A DNA stretch of 64,000 bases. It comes from Eledone cirrhosa. Taxonomy: Eukaryota. Made by a program: the position numbers and the translations under genes. The notes beneath the pieces are model-generated. The model had not been told where the DNA came from and did not search any database. It saw only the letters and a program-made list of their open reading frames with translations. The DNA lies in NCBI GenBank assembly GCA_964016885.1, contig OZ024748.1:45756001-45820000 (forward strand), given 5' to 3'. Position 1 is the first letter of the stretch; each line of letters begins with the position of its first letter. Below are positions 23,093 through 60,972 of the stretch, one piece after another.

Positions 23093-23402
23093 TATTGTTA
23101 TACTTGGGGAGGGTCATATTTGTGTAATATTGCCAGAATTAATAACAGAACACACTCACTGTTTGGTTGGTTTTCGCTTTTCGCTTCTGTGTCTTTTATA
23201 TCGGTAATCTAACATACTCTGTCATCAATGTTGCCATTGACTGCCCGACGGTAAAAAATAATACAGATACAATATAGACACAAACACATATATATAGTTT
23301 ATATGGCAATATTACACAAATATGACCCTCCCCAAGTATAACAATATTTGTTTCGACACACGATTTCATATAAAAAACCTCGCAGAACTAATTCTTCGCC
23401 GT

Positions 23403-23403: not shown

Positions 23404-23751
<348 letters not shown>

Positions 23752-25974: not shown

Positions 25975-28900
25975 CAAAGATTTGATAGAAACTGTCCGAA
26001 AGAGCCCTATTATCCAAATGGAAGGGAAAACCTTCCCCACCAACGACCCACCGCCAAACCTCAAACTGTCGGGGTAACAACCCTACAACATGAAACATTG
26101 AAAGGGACCTTTCCACATGATGTGGGCCCCTCTTGCCAAAAACCCCTTAACCGTGTCCTGCTAAAAGGATTCCCTCCCTCCCCAAACACCCCCAATCTGG
26201 ACATGGAGATCGAACAACCCGACCTCCAGGAAACGAAAAGGTAAATCTCATCACCCAATTCTAACTGGCTGATAGATATCGACTAGACTTCCCAAGTGCA
26301 CCACTGTGGACGTGGAGCAACCGCACTGGGTATTTAGATAGATTTTTAATTAGACAGAATGATAAGGAAACATTAAGCTGTCTACAAATGTACATGGTTG
26401 CCTATTCAGACCACAAATTAGTCACCTGCGTAGTCAACCTTAATAGAACACATAGACAGGGATCCAGATTCTGGAAGCTAAACATGTCGCTTCCGGCGCG
26501 TAAGGCCTACAGCAAACGGATTAAGTTAAGGGCCAGTTGACGGAGGCGATCTTCAACAACAGGTGGTGGAGCTCTCTCAAGAGAGCAATTAGAATAGAAT
26601 CGATAGCATTTAGCAAGGAAGTAGCTTTAGAAAAAACAAAACCGAAAAGGAACTGGTAGCTAAAGTAGAACAAGCACTTAGGAATGGCAGTACAGCTGAC
26701 GTGCTAGCAGCGAGAACGGCACTAGACCAGTTCTTCAACGTGAAACACGAAGGTTGTATGGTCAGAAGTAGAACACGTGCTCTAAGAAACGAGGGAGCCA
26801 AATCTGTTAGCTGGGCCCGAGTGGCAGAGGCGAAAAGTGGCAACAAATCCACAATTCGGTCATTGCAAGACTAAGATGGACGCATTCTACTTGAATCCAA
26901 GCAGATGTGCACGGCCTTCCAGTAGCATTTTGCACAACTGTTCGGGCAAAGCGGTACGTCAAGATGGATTTCAGCTCCTAATCCAACGGCGTACCACGAC
27001 TCTCGACCACGGATGCGGAGAGCTGCGAAAGGCCGATCACAGAGGGCGAAATAGAATATGCCCTAGGTCGCTATGGGAAACGCAAATCACTCGGTTTTAC
27101 ATAGGCATGGCAGACTTGTTCTCTGGCGTCCTCGAAGCGGTCTACTGCAACTGGCAGCAGAACGGGGGTATTCCCAGTTTTGTAGGCAGAGGCGTAGTAA
27201 TACTGATCAGGAAAGATGAGAACAAGGGGGATGAGATAAGAAATTTGAGGCCCATAACTCTGCCCAACACAGTATGTACTGACTCTCGAGCCGTTACTGC
27301 GGAAGTTGGAGCTGTTGCAGGGCATCCTGAACGAACCAGGACTGCGGAAAGCAGCGTCGGCCTATGTCGACGACATAACTGTATTGGTGTCGAAAACCTC
27401 GTAAATCAGGGTATCGGCAACCTATTACAGGAATACGAAACGCTGACAGGAACAAGACTAAACCCAAACAAGTCTGTCGGTTTGCAGCTCGGCACATGGA
27501 GAGGCAAACCCATGCCTTCCGACAGTGTCGTTGGATGCTGGACGGAAGGACCGGTGAAATTGCTCGGGATCTGGTTTGGTCCAGACATCCAGGTGGACAA
27601 GAACTGGAACGCGTTCACGGCGTAGGTGTTTGCACTCATCCAGAAGTGGGCTGAGGGCAAACTCTCCTTGAAAGGTCGAGCGGAGGTGGCGAACACTTAC
27701 ATAGCGTCTGTCATCTACTACTGCTTGACAGTCGTGCTTTGTCCCCGTGAATACCTCACCAAAATGGAACGCCTACTCTTCAAGTTCCTCTGGAAGAAAC
27801 AGGCTCCATTGGTGAGGAGATCCATCTCCTGTCAACACTCTTCTAACGGAGGGCTGGGCATACCGTGGCAGAAGATGTGCAAACACGTGCTGAGGCTATG
27901 CCATCTCCTGGTATTCCTGACCGGTGTACCGGTGTGGTTGTCGTTTGTGAGATGAGCTCTTCCACAACACGTCTCACTAACAGAGCTGCAGTTCTGGGTC
28001 AAGCGAAGACCAAAAATGGGCGCCCGGCACCCCGAGTGCCTCGAGGCGTTCACAGCCCTCTACCAAGCGGAAACGGCAATCAGCGGAGACTCCACTTCGA
28101 CATTCTATTGGGGATTAGTGGAGGATAAGTGTAACGACGTTGTCGGGGAAACTCTAGGCATTGAGGAAGACGAACTGACCAGGTTGTTCGGGAGGACTTT
28201 CCATCCAGGGCCTATGGATAACTTCCAGAGGTCTCTGGCCTGGCAGTGCTACCGAGGAGCTCTACCAGTTCGCGACAAAATCCACAGGCACGGACACCCT
28301 GGCAGAGATCCTGCCAAAAGGACCTATCCAAGATGCGAACAGGATATCGAAACCGTTCTGCACGCAATTGTTCAGTGCCCAGGGGTGACCGACCTGTGGA
28401 ATTATGTCGAACAGCTACTGTCACGTGTGGGACGCATCCAGTTGTCAGCCGAGTCCATAGTGAGGATCACCCCGCCGCCTTCATTTAAGAATGAATGAGA
28501 CGCGGTCTTCCCCTGTCCGGTGGCTATGGCGAAAGAGGTAATATGGTGGACGAGGTTAAAAAAACTGAGGGCAAGCACCTTTCTCTCCGGAAAACAACTC
28601 ATCACCTTCTTTAAGTACCACTTCAGAAGGAAGGTGAGAGTGGAGAGAGAGGTGCTATACCCCAGTAAATTCGCTGAAAGGTGGGTGAATGTGGCGAAAA
28701 TGGCCCGGGCGAATGGGCCTTCTCTGTACATAAACCTGTAGGTTGAGTACGATAAACAGAGGGAAGACGGGAACACCTACAAAACGTGTCCTGGTGTTGG
28801 GGGTTGTTCTATCCACGGGGTGTAAAACAACCCCGCAGTATCGTTACCCCCCCCCCCCACCATTATGGGGATTTCAATTGTTTTATTTTATATAGTTTAT

Positions 28901-33613: not shown

Positions 33614-33748
33614 AATTGATCAAAAGAACATCTATTTTATTAATACTTATATTAATAACTCCTGAAAATTTTAACCGTTGAGTGCTTCCAATCTACTGTA
33701 AAAATCATTCTTTGACATAATCATCGAATATTGTTTAACAATTTAATA

Positions 33749-37670: not shown

Positions 37671-37772
37671 TTTTGAATTAATATTAATAACTCCGGAAAA
37701 CAAACTGTTGAGTGCTTCCAATCTATTGTAAAACTCATTCTTTGATTTAGTCATTAAACCTTGTTTAACCTT

Positions 37773-39341: not shown

Positions 39342-39462
39342 CATGGAACTCCTTTAACCATCTTTTGATCTTATATTATGTATACTCCAGTCCTACAAAC
39401 TGTAGAGTGCTTCTTATCCGATATCTGCATTGCTTTATTGTACTACAATAAAACTCACCTCC

Positions 39463-39753: not shown

Positions 39754-40160
39754 GTAGGAGGTGAGTTTTATTGTAGTACAATAAAGCAATGAAGATATCG
39801 GATAAGAAGCACTCTACAGTTTGTGGGACTGGAGTATGCATAATATAAGATCAAAAGATGGTTAAAGGAGTTCAATATATTTTATTATGCGCATTTCAAA
39901 AACAAACATCATCAAACAATAATATTTGTGTTTTCATCAGATAAAACAGGAGAACATGATATGAAGGCTAAAAAAAACACTTGTTGATAGTGCAGTTTTA
40001 TGTTGATTTAAAACTGCACTATCAACAAGTGTTTTTTTAGCCTTCATATCATGTTCTCCTGTTTTATCTGATGAAAACACAAATATTATTGTTTGATGAT
40101 GTTTGTTTTTGAAATGCGCATAATGAAATATATTGAACTCCTTTAACCATCTTTTGATCT

Positions 40161-40405: not shown

Positions 40406-40522
40406 TTAGGGTAAATATTGATGCAATTCAATTCAAGCACTCAACGTACTTATTCCACATAAGAGTGACTGAGTAAATATCGAATAAGGAAAAGCGAAGT
40501 AGTGTCAGATGTTCAAGTCTTT

Positions 40523-46257: not shown

Positions 46258-46290
46258 GTCTCTACACTCTCCTTTGGCTCTGCCGCCCAC

Positions 46291-49200
46291 ATGGATGTGT
46301 TAAGAGTAGGATGTTTGAATGCACGTGGCCTGGGCTCAACTTGGAAGCAAGCAAAGCTTCTAAATGACCTCAGGTCATGTGGTATAAATGTAATGGTTAT
46401 CTGTGAGACTCGAATCAGCGTCGTGCGGCAGCTGGCCCCCACCTTCGATGACTTTGAGGTGCATGCATCTCTCTGTCAACCTGGAGGTGGGGGTGGGGTT
46501 GTCGTACTGCTGCAAAAACACCTGGGTCTTGCCGTACAGGTTGTGCACTCGGACTCGGAGAGTCGTTTGTTGGTGCTAGACGTTGGCAGTAGTGAAAGTG
46601 CGGCCTTGAGACTGGTCGCCGTCTACTCCCCTTTCGGAGCTGAACGGCCCGACTTCTTCCAGCGTTTGGAGACTTTTCTGGGAACGTCGCGTTCCCTGCT
46701 TCTAGCGGGGGATTGGAATGACATCCTAGATGCACGTTGGGTCAATGCAGGAGCATGTCCTAATAGAGGGGGGTGTAACAGCCTCAAGGGGTTACTCGAC
46801 CGTTTTAACTTGGTCGATAGATATCGACTAGATTTTCCAACTGTGCCTACCTGGACTTGGAGAAACCACAGTGGTCAATCTAGATCGTACTTAGATAGAT
46901 TCTTAGTTAGAAGTAAGGATAGGGACATATTAAGCTGTCCAGAAATGCGCACGGTTGGCTACACGGATCACAAATTAGTAACCTGCGTAGTCAATCTCGA
47001 GAAAACACATAAACAGGGTCCCGGTTACTGGAAACTTAATTTGTCTTTACCGGCAAAAGAGACTTACAGAAACCGGATTAGCAGATTAGTTAAGGAGAGG
47101 TTGACGGGTGCAATCGTCAACAACCGATGGTGGGCATCTCTCAAAAGAGAGATTAGAACAGAATCAATAAGTTATAGCAAGATGTTAGCTGCCGATAGGA
47201 ATAGAAACGAGAAAGAATTAACAGGTAAATTAGAAGAGGCAATCAAGAGCGAAGATGTGGCCAGAGTGCTGGCATCGAGGACGGCCTTGAACCGGTTTTT
47301 CGATGCAAAGCACGAAGGCTGCGTCATTCGAAGTAAAATACGTGCTCTAGGTAATGAGGGGGCCAAAGCCGTTGGCTGGGCCCGCGTGACAGAAGCTAAG
47401 AGTGGAAATCGATCCACCATCCGGTCTTTGCAAGAGGAAGATGGACGGGTGATCCGGGAGCCTAAGCAGATGTGCGAGGCCTTTCAAAGGCACTTTGCCA
47501 GATTGTTCGGGGGAGGCGAGGGTCCGAGCGGGGGCGTGGATTTCGGTCCATACCTCGACGGCCTGCCGCGTCTCTCGAGCGAAGAGGCAGAGTCCTGCGA
47601 GCGACCAATCTCGGCTGATGAGATCGGAGATGCGCTGAGCCAATGCAGCAGACGCAAATCTCCAGGTCTCGATGGTATACCTTACGAACTTTATTTAGCA
47701 ATGCCGGTCTTCTTCTCCAAACTCCTCGAAGCGGTCTACTGCAATTGGCAGCAGAACGGGAGAATTCCTTGTTCTGTAGCCAAGGGCGTAGTCACGCTGG
47801 TGAGGAAGGACGAGAACAAGGGAGATAGTATAAATAATTTTCGGCCCATAACCCTACTAAACACAGAGTTAAAGATTTTGGCCAAGGTGTTAGCAAAGAG
47901 GTTGGCGCTTGTCGTGGGTGGCCTGGTGGAAGATGCGCAGACATGTGCTATCCCATCCAGGTCCATTCACGATAACCTCCACCTCATGCGATACATCATA
48001 GAGAGGGTTGGCAACAAACCCGGCTTCGGTGGGGCCCTGATCAACTTGGATCAGTCTAAGGCCTTCGATAGGGTCGACCATGGTTACCTGGATGCGGTGC
48101 TAGCGGCGGCTGGGTTCGGTCCTGTTTTCAGAGGCTGGATCACTGCCTTACATAGCAACCACATCTGTTCTAGGATCAAGGTGAACGGCTACCTTTCGAA
48201 GCCGTTCGAAATCACAGGATCCATTCGACAGGGGTGCCCTCTCTCCTCCCTTCTGTACGTATTGACTCTCGAGCCTTTACTGAGGAAGTTGGAGTTGTTG
48301 CAGGGTATCCCCCTGGAACCAGGATTGAGCAAAGTTGTGTCGGCCTACGCCGATGACGTAACAGTAATGGTATCGACCGACTCGGAGATCGAGGCGATCG
48401 GTACCTTACTGGAGGAGTACGAAAGGTTGTCAGGAGCGAAACTGAACCGGGAAAAATCCATCGGTCTGCAACTCGGAACGTGGAGAGGCAGACCGATGCC
48501 TCCTGACGGTGTCGTCGGACACTGGACGGAGGGCCCGGTAAAGTTGCTTGGGGTCTGGTTTGGACCGGACCTCCAGGTGGAAAAGAACTGTAACGAGGTT
48601 ACGAACAATGTGTTTGCACTAACCCAGAAATGGGCCAAGTGTAAGCTGTCCCTAAAAGGCCGGGCGGAGGTGGCGAACATTTACATAGCGTCCGTCACTT
48701 ACTACCGCCTGACTGTCGTGCCTTGCCTTAAGGAAACACTCACCACCATGGAACGCATGCTCTTCCAATTTCTTTGGAAGAAGCGCCCTCCTATGGTGAG
48801 AAGATCCATCTGCTGCCAACAACCTTCGAAAGGAGGGCTGGGGATGCCGTGGTTGATGATGCGTAGGCACGCATTAAGGCTACGGCACCTACAGGTATTC
48901 CTCACTGGTCAACCGGTGTGGGCTCCGTTCGTGAAACGAGCCTTTTCGAGACTCGTCTCGCTCACCGAGCTACAGTCCTGGGTCAAGCAAAGATCCGGAA
49001 AACTGGGAGACTGGCACACTGAGTGTGCTCAGGCGCTCAGGGCTCTCTGGCAAGCGGGCCAAGCCATCGGTGGAGAATCCACCTCATCATTCTATAGAGG
49101 GCTGGTGGCTAGCAGGGGCGATGACACCCTTGGAGAGTCGCTGGACATGGAAGAAGACGAACTGGCCAGCCTGATCGGTAGGACTTTCGGCCCAGGACCA

Positions 49201-49728
49201 ATGGACAACTTCCAGAAGTCACTGGCCTAGCAGTACTACCGGGGGGCTCTACCCGTTCGAGAGAGGCTCTACAGAAACGGGCGCCCGGGCAGGGATCCCT
49301 CAAAAAATATTTGCCCTAGATGAGTGCGTCACGAAGAAACCGTTGCGCACGCATTGGTGCAATGTCCGGGCGTGGCTGATCTGTGGGGCTACGCTGAACG
49401 ACTGCTGTCGCGGGTGGCGCCGATTAAATTGACCGCCGAGTCCGTGATGACAATCAAACCTCCTCCCCTCTTCACAAAGGAAGCAAAGGCGGTTTTTCTG
49501 TGCATAATAGCCATGTTGAAAGAGGTTGTTTGGAGGATACGATTTAAAGGTCTGAGGTCAGGCAACTTCCTCTCTGGCCATAGTCTGGTCTACTTCTTCC
49601 GATATCACTTCGGAAGAAGGATAAGAATGGAGAGAGAGGTGCTTGGCCACAGGCAGTTTTATGAAAGGTGGGTGATAGTGGCGAGAATGGCTCGTGTAAA
49701 TGGGCCTTCTCTGTATACCATCCTGTAG
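46291..49728 (+). CDS. LINE ORF2: APE endonuclease + reverse transcriptase + C-terminal Cys/His domain; two nonsense mutations (49228-49230, 49321-49323)
   Basis: LNARGL, GDWN, SYLDRF, TDHKLV; KSPGLDG, FRPITLLN, LDQSKAFDRV, RQGCPLS, YADDV; CPR*..EETVAHALVQCP. Confidence 0.95.
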
Positions 49729-50599: not shown

Positions 50600-50885
50600 T
50601 GTGTGGCAGAGAGCTCAATAATTTGGATAAAACAGAGCTATAACTATCGTTAAAATACCAACACACAGAGATCATGCCTAAAATCACCCGTGCAGCCGAA
50701 AGAGAACGACCAGGAAGATTCGGGTCACTCAAATAAAATATCAATAAATTAATAAATTAAATGAATGTAAAAAACTCACCCGGACCCGCTAGAAGGATGT
50801 TAAATCTAGCTTCTTGGGTTTCTGCAATTCCTTAATCCAATCACTATCAACCCACATAAAAGATATATAAGACTTCTAGAGAAGA
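50600..50885 (+). pseudogene. possible highly decayed Penelope-like RT fragment
   Basis: RPGRFGSLK, LASWV and LSTHIKDI*DF occur in the order of PLE RT motifs PGRFYGLPKIHK ... LPSYIKDT.DFL. Frames are broken. Confidence 0.4.
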
Positions 50886-51271
50886 GACGAACGAGGAAAG
50901 GCTTCATCAACGAGTATTTCGTCCAATAATATAGTGGGGACCCAAAGCCAAAAACACACATGGTATTCAGCAAGGGAAGGAACCCGTATATTAGCGAAAG
51001 AATTCGGTGATGTGTAAATTATGTAAGAATACAAATTATCACATATCGAATCAGAGTGCTCAACAGACGTGTTAAAATAAACAAGAGCTATTCATCAGTC
51101 AATCATTAACAGAGAACGCTTTTAGCGATACTCCGACCAACTCCCATCTCACCCAACAAACATTAGGATATACCTGAGTATAATCCCAATTATACGTTTG
51201 GGGTGCTAACTATATTGTATTTCGTGGATAGTTGGCTGTATTTTTTTATATTAGACATAATTAAATAAAAT

Positions 51272-51313
<42 letters not shown>

Positions 51314-51351
51314 ATTAAATAAATGGAAAACTATATTTATAAAACCATATT

Positions 51352-51417
51352 TATTTCATTATATATATTTCGGGGATATCATATTAACAATATGCTATGC
51401 CTTCATCAGACAAAATA
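51352..51417 (-). ncRNA. type I hammerhead ribozyme
   Basis: Mirror of 51543-51608. Confidence 0.75.
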
Positions 51418-51542
51418 CAATATAAACAGTTTTATAGATAAATATATTCGACATACCGTAATAAACATCAACTTCATTTGAAATGAAGTTGATGTTTATT
51501 ACGGTATGTCGAATATATTTATCTATAAAACTGTTTATATTG

Positions 51543-51608
51543 TATTTTGTCTGATGAAGGCATAGCATATTGTTAATATGATATCCCCGAAATATATATA
51601 ATGAAATA
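51543..51608 (+). ncRNA. type I hammerhead ribozyme
   Basis: tattttgt CTGATGA aggcatagcatatt gtt aatatgatatcccc GAAA tatata TA atgaaata. Confidence 0.75.
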
Positions 51609-51736
51609 AATATGGTTTTATAAATATAGTTTTCCATTTATTTAATATTGTAAATATACTCCAAGTATTTGTCGAGTGCTTTTATATCAGTTATAAATAT
51701 TTACTAGTTGTAACCCAACAATTTTAAATATAACTT

Positions 51737-51800
<64 letters not shown>

Positions 51801-51984
51801 TATACACGCAGATATACGATACATATACACGTCTCGTGTTCAATCGGGGGTAACCGCAGTTAGTAAGGTACTCAATGCATTAGTAGAGTGTAAGCATTAT
51901 GATTAATAGATAAATGGCTTCTACAGAATTAGAACTGTTTAATTCAAATGAAATCATTAGGAACGTTTAGTATACCTAATATAT

Positions 51985-52170
51985 AATTGTTTCTACTTTT
52001 TGGCACAAGGGCAGCAATTATCCCAGTGTATTACTGGTACTTTATTTTATCGACCCCGTAAGGTTGAAAGGCAAAGTTAACCTCGGCGGGATTTGAACTC
52101 AGAATGGCAAGGGCCGTAACTCTATGCTGCAAAGCATGGCGTCCGACCCTCTACCGATACTGCCAATCCA
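51985..52170 (-). mobile_element. OK-like SINE
   Basis: Consensus match. Confidence 0.85.
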
Positions 52171-52191
52171 CTAATGATATATACATAGAGG

Positions 52192-52784: not shown

Positions 52785-53382
52785 ATTCCATGCTTTGCAG
52801 CATAGAGTTACGGCCCTTGCCATTCTGAGTTCAAATCCCGCCAAGGTTAACTTTGCCTTTCATCCTTACGGGGTCGATCAAATAAAGTACCAGTAATGTA
52901 CTGGGTATTTGCTGGCCTTGTGCCAATAGTAGAAACAATTAATAACACACCACGATGGGTTGGAAGGGCGGTGGATTGGCAGTATCGTTAGAGGGTCGGT
53001 CGCCATGCTTAACAGCATAGAGTTACGGCCCTTTACGGTCTAAGTTCAAATCCTGCCGAGATTAACTTTGCCTTTCATCCTTACAGGGTCGATAAAATAA
53101 AGTACCAGTAATATACTGGATAATTGCTGGCCTTGTGCCAAAAGAAGAAACAATTAAGAACACACCACACCTAGACTATTTATTTCGTTCAGTATTTTAT
53201 CGGTGAATTGGCAGTAATGGTAGAAAGGTCGGACATGCTTTCCAGCGTAGTTACGTCCCTTTACGATCTGAGTTCAAATCCCGCCGAGGTTAACTTTGCC
53301 TTTCATCCTTACGGGGGTCAATAAAATAAAGTACCAGTAATGTACTGGGTAATTGCTGGCCTTGTGCCAAAAGCAGAAACAA
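52785..53382 (+). mobile_element. three tandem OK-like SINEs (52785-52940, 52968-53155, 53205-53382)
   Basis: gagttcaaatcccgccgaggttaactttgcctttcatccttacgggg-type core present three times. Confidence 0.85.
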
Positions 53383-55435: not shown

Positions 55436-56025
55436 TAAATCAAAGGTTTACGAAGGTGGGCGGAAAGGTTCATAGACTGACTGTGAAGCAGTGAGGCTAG
55501 AGCTGTGAAATTTTGCATACATTAACTTCAATTCTTTATATTAAGAACCGCATTGTTTCTTTGCAGGGATTGTTGAAAACTAAACCGAATTTGGTCTGAT
55601 GAAATGGATCTCCGTTGACGTCAACGACAAGTGTTTCAATTATTCGATATATGGAAGAATTTGCTCATGAAATAACATTTTAAATATATGACTGAGCAAT
55701 TAACAGACACGTGTACTCTTAACTGAATTCTCGAAAAGATTCAGTTTGACGAAATATGTGACAAAGCTGATGTTTTGAATAACGGATACAACCTATACGA
55801 GTGGGCTTTCAAACAGATTCCTACCACCAAATTTTAATCACAAGGAAATGATGAACCGGAGATTATGGTCAACCAGGAAGCGACGCAGTCGGCTGTAACC
55901 TGAGACCAAACGATTGCAAAGCGAACTTGTAAATCATTCGCCCATCTCATGTCCAAGAAAATATCTTTCATGTGAATATAAAAGTATAAAAGATCATTAG
56001 GGGGTATAAGTTGTCCGTTCAAAAA

Positions 56026-56466
56026 TAATTGTTTCTACTTTAGGCACAAGGCCAGCAATAACCCAGTGCATTACTGGTACTTTATTTTATCGACCCTGTA
56101 AGGCTGAAAGGCAAAGTCAACCTCGGCGGGATTTGAACTCAGATCGTAAAGGGACGTAACTATGCTGGAAAGCATGGCGTCCGACCCTCTACCGATACTG
56201 AATGTTAACTTAACGTCTTCTTCACTGATGTTCACATGAACAGCCTTCATCATCATTATAACCATTATAACTATTATTATTATCATTTGGCAGTATTGGG
56301 AGAGGGTCGGACGCCATGCTTTGGCGTATAGAGTTACGGCCCTTGCCATTCTGAGTTCAAATCCCGCTGAGGTTAACTTTGTCTTTCATCCTCACGGGGT
56401 CGATAAAATAAAGTACCAGTAATACACTGGGTAATTGCTGGCTTTGTGCCTAACGTAGAAACAATT
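56026..56466. mobile_element. divergent pair of OK-like SINEs (56026-56200 -, 56287-56466 +)
   Basis: Consensus match on both strands. Confidence 0.85.
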
Positions 56467-56678
56467 ATTATCATTATTAGTGTTATTATTATCATCTTCA
56501 CCATCAGCAACAATTTACCACTACAATTATCGCCATAATCGTCACGACTACCAGCATCAACACCACTACATACATATACACACATATATCCATATATAGA
56601 AAAACACACATATATATATATATATACATATGTATGTATGAGTGTATGTGCATATATATTTACACAAAACCTTCATAT

Positions 56679-58394: not shown

Positions 58395-58570
58395 AGTAAA
58401 ATGGTTGACCCCGACGGCAGAGCTCAAGCCGTTTCGACGGCTATTTCTGGACCAGAAATAGCCGTCGAAACGGCTTGACCTCTGCCGTCGGCGTCAAACA
58501 TTTTCCTATTACCCACTCTACTACCCTAAGTATTGAGTACTCTGATGCGTTATGGTCCATCTGGTTCCTT
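58395..58570 (+). mobile_element. family B fold-back element
   Basis: Hairpin 58395-58508 (centre ctggaccag) plus tail. Confidence 0.7.
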
Positions 58571-58645
58571 CGGGAATAACGACAGTAAGTAAGGTACTCA
58601 ATGCATAACAGAGTATATATATATCTAATATATATGTAGCCATTT

Positions 58646-59095: not shown

Positions 59096-59255
59096 GAAAG
59101 TTTGTTTTATAAATATTGACATATCCAGGAACGAGATCTTAACAGTTCAAGTTTTACCTGTCCAGAAAACATGTCGAGTGCTTCGAATCAGTTATATATA
59201 TATATAGTTGTTGAATTTCCAACAAATTAAATAACCATTTGCTTATATAAATATA

Positions 59256-60129
59256 CGAGGTGTGCAGAAAAGTTCCAGGACTGATGTCACAAAAGATTTA
59301 TTTCAAACCCAAACTTCACACTAAGAGTTTTCTCCTTCAAAGTAACCCCCCTGGAGTATGTAACTGTAATCTTAGCTCTCTGAAGCGATCAAACTTTTTT
59401 CTTCATAATTTTATATACATGTCCTCAGTTTCAGGTCGTCAAGCAATGAGCACAGAGCAACGAACAAACGTGAAGTTTCTCGTACGGTTGGGGAAAACTC
59501 CGTCAGAAGCACTGGAATTGCTGCAGCAAGTGCATGGAGATGAGACGATGTCACGCTCGCGTAATTTTGGGTGGTGCAAGAGGTTTAAAGAAGGACGCGA
59601 GGACGTGGAAGATGACCCCAGGAGCGGAAGGCAAATGGTGCGTAGCGATCGTCGGCTGACTGTTCGACTGATGGCAAATGAACTGGGCATGAATTGGGAC
59701 AGCGTCTGGAAGATTCTCACTGAAGATTTGGACATGCGGAAAGTCTGCGCGAAGATGGTGCCAAAACTGCTGAACGATGACCAGAAGGGTCAACGCATGC
59801 AAGTGTGCCAGGACATCTTCGAGCGTCTTGAAAACGAACCAGAGTTGCTAGGGAGAGTCATCACCGGTGATGAGTCATGTATCTTCGAGTACGACCCGGA
59901 GGGGACCCGTTTTGAAGACGTGGACGACATCAAAAAGGCCGTGACGACGGAACTACGGAGGATCCCGGAAGAATCCTTCCAGGAGTGCACGCAACTGTGG
60001 CAGAAAAGGATGGAAAAGTGCATTAGACTCAAGGGGGATTACTTTGAAAGAGAAAACTCTTAGTGTGAAGTTTGGGTTTGAAATAAATCTTTTGTGACAT
60101 CAGTCCTGGAACTCTTCTAACACACCTCG
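59256..60129 (+). mobile_element. internally deleted mariner transposon
   Basis: About 95-bp inverted repeats (59256-59350 and 60033-60129), TA on both sides, mariner transposase motifs. Confidence 0.95.
59446..60063 (+). CDS. mariner transposase, in-frame deleted (HTH retained, DD34D incomplete)
   Basis: EQRTNVKF..LGK, RFKEGRE.VEDDPRSGR, KMVPKLL, ITGDES.IFEYDPE joined directly to GTRFEDV...GDYFE. Confidence 0.8.
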   Translation: MSTEQRTNVKFLVRLGKTPSEALELLQQVHGDETMSRSRNFGWCKRFKEGREDVEDDPRSGRQMVRSDRRLTVRLMANELGMNWDSVWKILTEDLDMRKVCAKMVPKLLNDDQKGQRMQVCQDIFERLENEPELLGRVITGDESCIFEYDPEGTRFEDVDDIKKAVTTELRRIPEESFQECTQLWQKRMEKCIRLKGDYFERENS

Positions 60130-60140
60130 TATATATATAA

Positions 60141-60203: not shown

Positions 60204-60972
60204 ATTCACAAGAATCAAAGCTATGTTCAAAGCATTTATTCACTTATAATTGTTTCATCCAAACCTAGGCTTGGAGTCTTCGGAGCATTTTTCAATGTTT
60301 GTACACATGCTTGACCCCCTTTCCAACGCAAGAGACATACAGATACATATGTATATATAGATGTACAGTGGAGTGACATATATTATATTATATTTCTGTA
60401 TAGCAATTCAAATTCAAAATCAAAATCACATTAAAAGAAAATCAAAGAAAAATTAAAATACAATCGGCAGTTAACATAGATAATGCAAGAGGATAGTTTG
60501 TTAGTCAGATGTAGTAGTTATTTTAGTTATTTTACGCGTTAGTTACACGTGGGGCATGCACGTGTGTCTCATTTATATATGATTATTGTGCGGCAGGGTG
60601 TTACATGTAATAGAAGCACTTAAAGCGGGTAAGTAAGAGTATTATGGAGGTTGTAGTGGTAAGGTATTTTTTGTATAAGATACAGAAGTATGCGTGCAGA
60701 AAAATAGTATAAAGGAGAAGCAAAAGAAAGTTATGGTTTTTGTATCCACAACCATTTTCACATTCAATAAACGTAATATAAATGCTTTGAACATAGCTTT
60801 GATTCTTGTGAATTCTATATAACTGCTCTGAAGAACAACTGATGTTATTACATTGAGCTATTGATCTTACTGGTAATAAGGTAGTAATAAATTACTGACC
60901 TTCACTGTTTAGGGTTTAAAATATATATAACTATAAAAAGTTTTAGTATATACATAACCATAAATAGTATCC

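Follow-up and report, generated by a model that had tools for sequence, protein, structure and literature searches.

In the window, the whole 64,000-nucleotide stretch of Eledone cirrhosa DNA that was analyzed, an asymmetric fold-back flanked by two (TA)n runs is located at positions 51308 to about 51740. It consists of two pLTR arms in opposite orientation, one of which continues into a one-sided tail (Table 1). The short arm stops at 51652, and 5 nt separate it from the ACTC that opens a small bulged hairpin, m1. The minimum-free-energy fold of the focal m1 is the same bulged stem (z -1.7). The layout of the putative hammerhead in the arms agrees with that in the Hydra rows of File S2 of Craig et al. 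2021 (PMC8557442, supplement in part); in Rfam, a hammerhead was absent among the best 150 of 229 listed matches. Two more matches to the motif descriptor, at 50610-50638 and 51055-51088 (-), lie in repeats between (TA)n runs beside the focal fold-back and may be due to chance or to other families.

Other repeats were also observed in the window. A 990-codon open frame at 46258-49230 (+) has endonuclease- and RT-like motifs and was classified by eye as an L1/Tx1-type LINE, a decayed relative of which is found at about 26259-28741. Approximately 12 copies of a SINE-like repeat of about 190 nt are present (51984-52171, 52788-53382, 56024-56469 and others), several of them as inverted pairs. The region 59246-60139 was labeled by eye as a remnant of a Mariner-like transposase with terminal inverted repeats of about 110 nt.

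Table 1. Coordinates of the focal fold-back, of hairpin copies in other families and of a motif-less control
Feature	Positions	Strand	Remarks
Hairpin copy 1 (m1)	51658..51680	+	ACUC/GAGU 4-bp stem, UC bulge, 3-bp upper stem, 4-nt loop, 3′ GCU
m1, 5′ parts	ACTC 51658-51661; upper stem 51662-51664 with 51669-51671	+	
m1, 3′ parts	bulge 51672-51673; GAGT 51674-51677; GCT 51678-51680	+	
AU-rich stretch from short end (51652) to m1	51653..51657	+	junction registers
One-sided tail between short and long end sites	51653..~51740	+	88 nt
5′-truncated pLTR arm running on into tail (long-ended arm)	51481..51652	+	
Inverted pLTR arm, ending at short site	51308..51479	-	joined to (TA)n
Putative minimal type I hammerhead	51543..51608	+	CUGAUGA 51551-51557, GAAA 51589-51592; by eye
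Mirror copy of putative hammerhead	51352-51417	-	
(TA)n target flank	51741..51805	.	second run ~51279-51307
m1 of another family	5510..5552	+	6-bp upper stem
m1 of family B	5881..5907	+	also 23524-23550, 58515-58541
m1 of 6268 family	6405..6453	+	G-C form; also 1193-1241 (-)
m1 of family related to 33658-33686 and 37690-37716 (+)	3227..3253	-	
m1	39384..39411	+	also 39808-39835 (-)
m1-like motif	40436..40475	-	imperfect upper stem
m1 of 58590 family	58593..58614	-	m2 degenerate; also 51867-51889 (-)
m1 of 60815 family	60825..60861	+	G-C form
Control, motif-less fold-back	23096..23402	+	relatives encode Neptune/Nematis-type ORF

The element that carries the fold-back

For the focal family, 637 candidates included at least 40 copies that were identical across 260 nt. 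Read-through of the long end was found in three of the 30 examined loci of this family, and the read-through copies led to a tandem unit of 4.0 kb, in which a 736-aa ORF (L032:2771-4981) is located. The ORF encodes an RT with YRDD, followed by a C-terminal GIY-YIG endonuclease (EN; IVY...YVG). It contains SDKTNN, in which DKT replaces DKG, and IRWRAF, which corresponds to the RW[KR] motif; RWR is likewise present in Hydra-1_Crog in the published data consulted (PMC8557442). By eye, the linker is CNCRDRSKC (CxCX5C) and the EN possesses CDLC (CxxC) and CKH (CxH) without CCHH. The predicted structure of the ORF (pLDDT 85) is closest to TERT. Sequence searches of Pfam and PDB with the ORF matched nothing, and the sole named protein match comes from Argonauta. 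Intact ORFs of the focal family are numerous in the genome, and the family is young.

These features agree with the Hydra clade: a putative hammerhead (by eye) is present in the pLTR, insertion is into (TA)n, and the pLTRs are tandem or inverted with a tail. The unit of about 4.0 kb is longer than the <3 kb usual for Hydra elements because of its long 3′ UTR; in the passages cited from PMC8557442, this size is a tendency and no strict criterion. Naiad/Chlamys was ruled out, since the EN is C-terminal, not N-terminal, and a hammerhead motif is present. Neptune/Nematis elements, with a CX2-5CxxC linker and a CCHH EN, were ruled out by the CxCX5C linker. A MITE or a miRNA-like hairpin element was ruled out by the read-through into an RT/EN ORF. 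Judged from their sequence, the fold-backs are the head-to-head ends of Hydra-clade Penelope-like elements (PLEs). Head-to-head pairs with full-length ORFs also exist in the focal family (G000:C7:90927941-90930335, C9:14505525-14508022 and C11:21131925-21137224), and each of their arms exceeds 4 kb.

A covarying hairpin at both ends of the tail

The earlier note had described tails with RCTC...GAGY, and in all of those that it listed the motif was found at the position given or only a few bases away. This core held; however, the bulge, the upper stem and a second copy had been missed. The consensus is RCUC-Y(stem, loop)R-UH-GAGY-RCU, in which a 2-nt bulge separates a lower stem of 4 bp from an upper stem that covaries. 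The two strands of the stem are separated by 6-24 nt (about 70 in one family), and the sequence that precedes it is A/U-rich and poor in G.

The descriptor matched 19 times in the window, against a mean of 3.2 (maximum 9) in 100 rough shuffles. A survey of 634,000 bases, comprising the window, 17 neighboring and 40 scattered 10-kb stretches, yielded 71 asymmetric fold-backs. The descriptor matched 31 of the 71, compared with 25 of 14,200 shuffled tails. Thus, the motif is far commoner than in shuffled sequence, and a chance motif was rejected. The remaining 40 include motifs missed through mutation or an internal TA run, four of the 6268 family among them, and families that are motif-less. In the matched fold-backs, the distance from the short-arm end to RCTC was -1 to 10 nt in 30 of 31 and 3 to 7 nt in 23, the tight peak by which the claim was to be judged; the short arm does stop before RCTC, as had been stated, although within about 0-10 nt and not 2-12 nt. 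The short-arm end is ill-defined at 37689 and 58615, where insertions are nested. The conserved GAGY strand lies 18-79 nt from the short end. The short end thus keeps its place relative to the 5′ foot of the stem, whereas its distance from the 3′ strand varies, which suggests that the signal is a folded structure.

Base pairing was analyzed in 72 motifs from 52 non-redundant loci, with the upper stem left out of the motif definition. Because MAFFT misplaces the 5′ strand across the variable loops, the pairs were counted by script with anchored columns. The bulge was UU in 55 motifs, UC in 9 and UA in 7. The first upper pair was Watson-Crick in 70 of 72 (C-G 46, U-A 24), the second in 43 of 67 and the third in 28 of 40, each with a permutation p < 1e-4 that ignores the relatedness of the loci. 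When bulge sizes of 0, 1, 3 and 4 nt were assumed instead, the first pair was Watson-Crick in only 1, 0, 9 and 10 of about 72. On protein trees built from the sequences collected in this analysis only, without published Hydra proteins, the first upper pair of m1 changed five times and both sides were altered every time; the second and third upper pairs showed at least seven and at least six double changes, respectively. The double change between A-U and G-C in the first lower pair, from which a conserved helix had been proposed, is real: the A-U form occurs in three separate lineages, each sister to G-C families.

The isolated hairpins are weak (z -0.5 to -1.7 in 10 folds), and in 4-5 of the 10 another, or merely partial, fold was favored. 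In upper positions 1-4, G-U was counted 13 times and A-C 7 times, a ratio by which neither strand is singled out as the folded one. Rfam gave no match at the motif among the best 150 of 229 listed; all those listed were below the gathering score and of the miRNA-like palindrome type only. The base-pair counts show that the motif is a conserved structured element with covarying base pairs across independent lineages.

In full-length copies, the order is hammerhead, short end, m1, spacer, long end, m2 and ATG. The short end is directly 5′ of m1, and the long (tail) end is directly 5′ of the second hairpin, m2. The insertion itself is without m2: in the focal family, m2 follows the tail in full-length copies (L031:2697-2718) and is missing from the focal insertion. 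In five genome families, a read-through copy was available and the long end was known; m2 was found just past the long end in four of them: the focal family, the 6268 family (L060, L067), the 60815 family (L311) and a family outside the window (L199, L201) with about 70 nt between the strands of m2. In the 6268-family copies, m2 is followed by the start of a Hydra-type ORF. The exception is the abundant 58590 family (L160-L189), in which the long end is sharp and only a reduced GCAC/GUGC hairpin, recognized after the fact, follows. By eye, two further families (L211, L198) have two copies or a variant with a 1-nt bulge. No read-through copy of the 37680 family was found among 30 loci.

Relatives were collected from metagenomes with a 16-protein alignment. 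This gave 79 loci, of which 64 included the ORF start and 50 at least 150 nt upstream; 44 of these were non-redundant. Their UTRs contained two motifs in 23 cases, one in 15 and none in 6, so that at least one was present in 38 of 44. In the controls, the motif was detected in 1 of 44 antisense UTRs, which indicates a bias to the sense strand, in 1 of 381 ORF windows and in 17 of 8,800 shuffles. These relatives have a median amino acid identity of 47% among themselves, and m2 is mostly located 12-31 nt 5′ of the estimated start codon. The motif core came from the window, so the metagenome counts test it independently; the bulge rule of the descriptor was written after motif copies had been viewed. 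In the parts of the PMC8557442 supplement consulted, the motif was recognized by eye twice at the start of the Hydra-1_Ajap consensus, with one copy at the 3′ end in each of Hydra-2_Ajap and Hydra-2_Amil, and as a variant in Hydra-1_Crog and Hydra-1_Obim. The hosts are a sea cucumber and a coral, with the variants in a sea louse and an octopus.

The motif-less family at 23096-23402 served as a control, and the ORF of its relatives has a CTNRKCIIC linker and DKS. This family (L268, L272) has a 57-nt tail and an asparagine-rich insert in its ORF. Its long end is followed by a small hairpin, perhaps a functional analogue, and by a possible ATG. No ORF was traced for the motif-less families 61026 and 4610 among 30 loci each; thus, clade specificity rests on one traced family. 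The family at 4610-4868 (L402, L419) also occurs as short head-to-tail repeats, as retrozymes do. A PLE-wide motif was rejected, since the motif was matched in 31 of the 71 fold-backs and is missing from a family of Neptune type. The "cross-family" signal of the earlier note is therefore valid within the Hydra clade but does not extend to all fold-back families. As far as examined, with one motif-less family traced, the motif is Hydra-associated.

Insertion ends and the proposed start of reverse transcription

The ends of insertions were mapped relative to the hairpins. In the genome, two sharp peaks were observed in each of eight families, and a ninth family gave long ends only. With contig ends and read-throughs removed beforehand, 16 of 21 metagenome copy ends were at -4 to +6 nt from a hairpin (GCTC), seven at m1 and nine at m2; the other five were elsewhere. 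The spacing from hairpin to end is alike at m1 and m2. The proposal of a conserved cis-element that fixes the boundary of arm and tail is supported. The 5′ junctions of the ORF-bearing copies L350, L097, L101, L124 and L132 are likewise located just before m1 or m2.

Head-to-head pairs joined a short and a long end in 69 of 70 cases, and in 74 of 80 by a second method; these counts take in repeats of window copies and loci chosen for their long end. By their coordinates, several of the six other pairs join neighboring elements or touch a locus edge. In the families 5765 and 39055, which never yielded query matches, 26 of 26 pairs were short plus long. Of 28 mapped loci in the focal family, 8 have an ORF-bearing arm that ends at the short site and 13 have one that ends at the long site, and all 10 insertions with both outer ends visible were short plus long. 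The short-ended arm extends further 5′ than its long-ended partner in L021 and L025. In L355 and L358, short-ended arms carry whole ORFs and no inverted partner was present in the examined stretch.

The junctions carry short TA-like homology. Long-end junctions fall into two registers in phase with TA (21 and 16 copies), as expected from pairing of the primer with the AU-rich sequence that precedes the stem. In the focal family, 0 of 62 ends used a perfect TA run that lies internally, and a better TA run in another family by at most 1 of 77.

Since copies end a few bases before either hairpin, the hairpins likely tell the RT where to start. The tandem bulged hairpins of the 5′ UTR are probably binding sites in the RNA, from which reverse transcription starts a few bases 5′ of the stem. 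Three roles had been offered for the motif: an RT-binding site, a guide for endonuclease cutting and a pause site. A putative RT-binding or positioning site fits best, because the inserted DNA lacks the second copy, which lies beyond the long end, and because the end keeps to the 5′ foot of the stem. The pause site is disfavored by the short-ended arms, which have whole ORFs and can reach further 5′ than their long-ended partner.

We propose the following scheme, in which protein binding, priming and the coupled use of the sites lean on the Poseidon results of Frangieh et al. 2024 (PMC11167929). In the passages cited, both strands were cut by the Poseidon protein, which initiated internally at the two sites that delimit the tail and required RNA on their 3′ side. 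The element protein would bind each hairpin, and its GIY-YIG domain would nick both strands of a (TA)n target. Each 3′-OH would then anneal to the AU-rich sequence at the base of one hairpin, for which 51653..51657 is the likely place in the focal copy, and prime its own cDNA. The two sites would be used together on opposite target strands, and the two 5′-truncated cDNAs would be joined head to head, so that the tail would correspond to the RNA between the two start sites. Priming at the 5′-UTR hairpin pair near the 5′ end of the RNA would give the abundant tiny stubs without ORF. Long-ended copies with an ORF need a template that continues into m2, which implies a tandem or circular RNA; Cervera and de la Pena 2014 put forward circular RNAs in the part of that paper used here (PMC4209133). 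Two starts set by hairpins would likely explain the long-known lopsided tail of PLEs. The step with the least support is the use of a single RNA and a protein dimer for both starts, which has nearly an even chance of being correct. The whole event would amount to built-in twin priming: a dimer on two tandem hairpins of about 20 nt in one transcript uses nicks on opposite strands of (TA)n, makes two cDNAs and produces the inverted pLTR with its one-sided tail at once, the hairpin being a portable tag that sets the RT start on any RNA. We put this full version forward tentatively, as slightly more doubtful than the shared dimer.

The main rival is that the motif guides the GIY-YIG endonuclease as DNA, in the donor copy, the cDNA or an extruded hairpin, and that cuts 5′ of m1 and m2 resolve a longer intermediate. 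It is kept alive because some copies also begin at the m1 and m2 sites, which a DNA cut could explain. In the passages cited, Craig et al. 2021 attribute the tail to EN-mediated resolution (PMC8557442), and the D. virilis EN needed the tail for recognition according to Frangieh et al. 2024 (PMC11167929). The wobble pairs (G-U 13, A-C 7) leave the strand unfixed. However, a bulged stem with 6-24 nt (about 70 in one family) between its strands needs a single strand, the products are without m2, and the long end occurs in the two TA-phased registers that primer pairing gives. We consider a DNA guide unlikely. Less probable again is processing of RNA 3′ ends, in which a nuclease or RNA cuts 5′ of the stems and the new 3′ end enters target-primed reverse transcription. 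The fixed distance to a structured motif and the hammerhead that the elements already carry are in its favor. Such a cut, however, would take the hairpin off the template, two independently cut RNAs would not give the strict pairing of short and long ends, and the Poseidon RT initiates internally on uncut RNA in the passages cited (PMC11167929).

The hairpins might serve cis-packaging or translational control only, with the ends set by AU-rich microhomology to (TA)n. The position of m2, mostly 12-31 nt 5′ of the estimated start codon, and the A/U-rich, G-poor bases 5′ of the stem are compatible with this, whereas better TA runs in the same RNA are left unused (0/62; at most 1/77 ends) and the spacing is the same at both hairpin copies; this explanation appears quite improbable. 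The poorest candidate, to which we give hardly any weight, is that m1 stalls the fold-back second-strand synthesis of a cDNA begun at the long site. It would result in short plus long pairs, and Arkhipova 2013 read palindromic junctions as self-priming in the passages cited (PMC3846280). The arms of L021 and L025, in which the short-ended one outreaches its partner 5′, and the whole-ORF short-ended arms of L355 and L358, without an inverted partner in the stretch, contradict it, and m2 would be left unexplained. A fold-back pause was thus rejected as the cause of the short end.

Comparison with known systems

PLEs are the sister group of telomerase RTs. According to the passages cited, the inverted pLTR with a one-sided tail is already known (PMC3846280, PMC8557442), and the choice of internal start sites and the origin of this structure are stated as open questions (PMC8557442, PMC11167929). 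The hairpins are not described in the passages and supplement parts of Craig et al. 2021 (PMC8557442) consulted, nor in those of PMC13282606 and of the 2026 retrozyme preprint 10.64898/2026.07.22.740005. No description was found in the open-access literature searched. Apparently, the motif is an undescribed clade-wide cis-element of a known retroelement clade. A covarying hairpin repeated at both ends makes the start-site choice of PLEs directly testable. For repeat annotation, the hairpin is also a diagnostic by which the ends and stubs of Hydra-clade elements can be recognized, and RT start sites could possibly be programmed with it as a minimal tag.

The Hydra-clade EN+ PLEs of Craig et al. 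2021 (PMC8557442, in the parts cited) share the EN, linker, hammerhead, (TA)n target and tailed inverted pLTR with the elements studied here. In contrast, the tail is about 65-160 nt here and 30-40 bp there, and the focal-family unit is 4.0 kb compared with <3 kb.

Poseidon PAc of Anolis, as described in the passages cited from Frangieh et al. 2024 (PMC11167929), is alike in its two internal RT starts that bound the tail and in the requirement for RNA 3′ of the start. Its AT-rich target is cut on both strands and a dimer is predicted, as is proposed for the elements here. In Poseidon PAc, the start lies within the ORF, in an AC-rich stem-loop, whereas in our elements the starts are in the 5′ UTR with one hairpin per site; a conserved binding motif that is repeated was not defined in the cited passages. 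For Poseidon, the start site was reported to be non-homologous to the target, whereas short TA-like homology exists at the junctions here.

Our ORF resembles telomerase in that its predicted fold is closest to TERT. In telomerase RNA, a protein-bound stem anchors TERT beside the template and, at a fixed spacing, sets the template boundary. In our elements, the hairpin is 3′ of the copied region, would set the start, and is present twice. In L1 twin priming, two target strands prime two cDNAs and an inversion results; the upstream position at which the second primer anneals is variable, and there is no overlap between the pieces. In contrast, both starts are fixed here, and both arms copy the same sequence.
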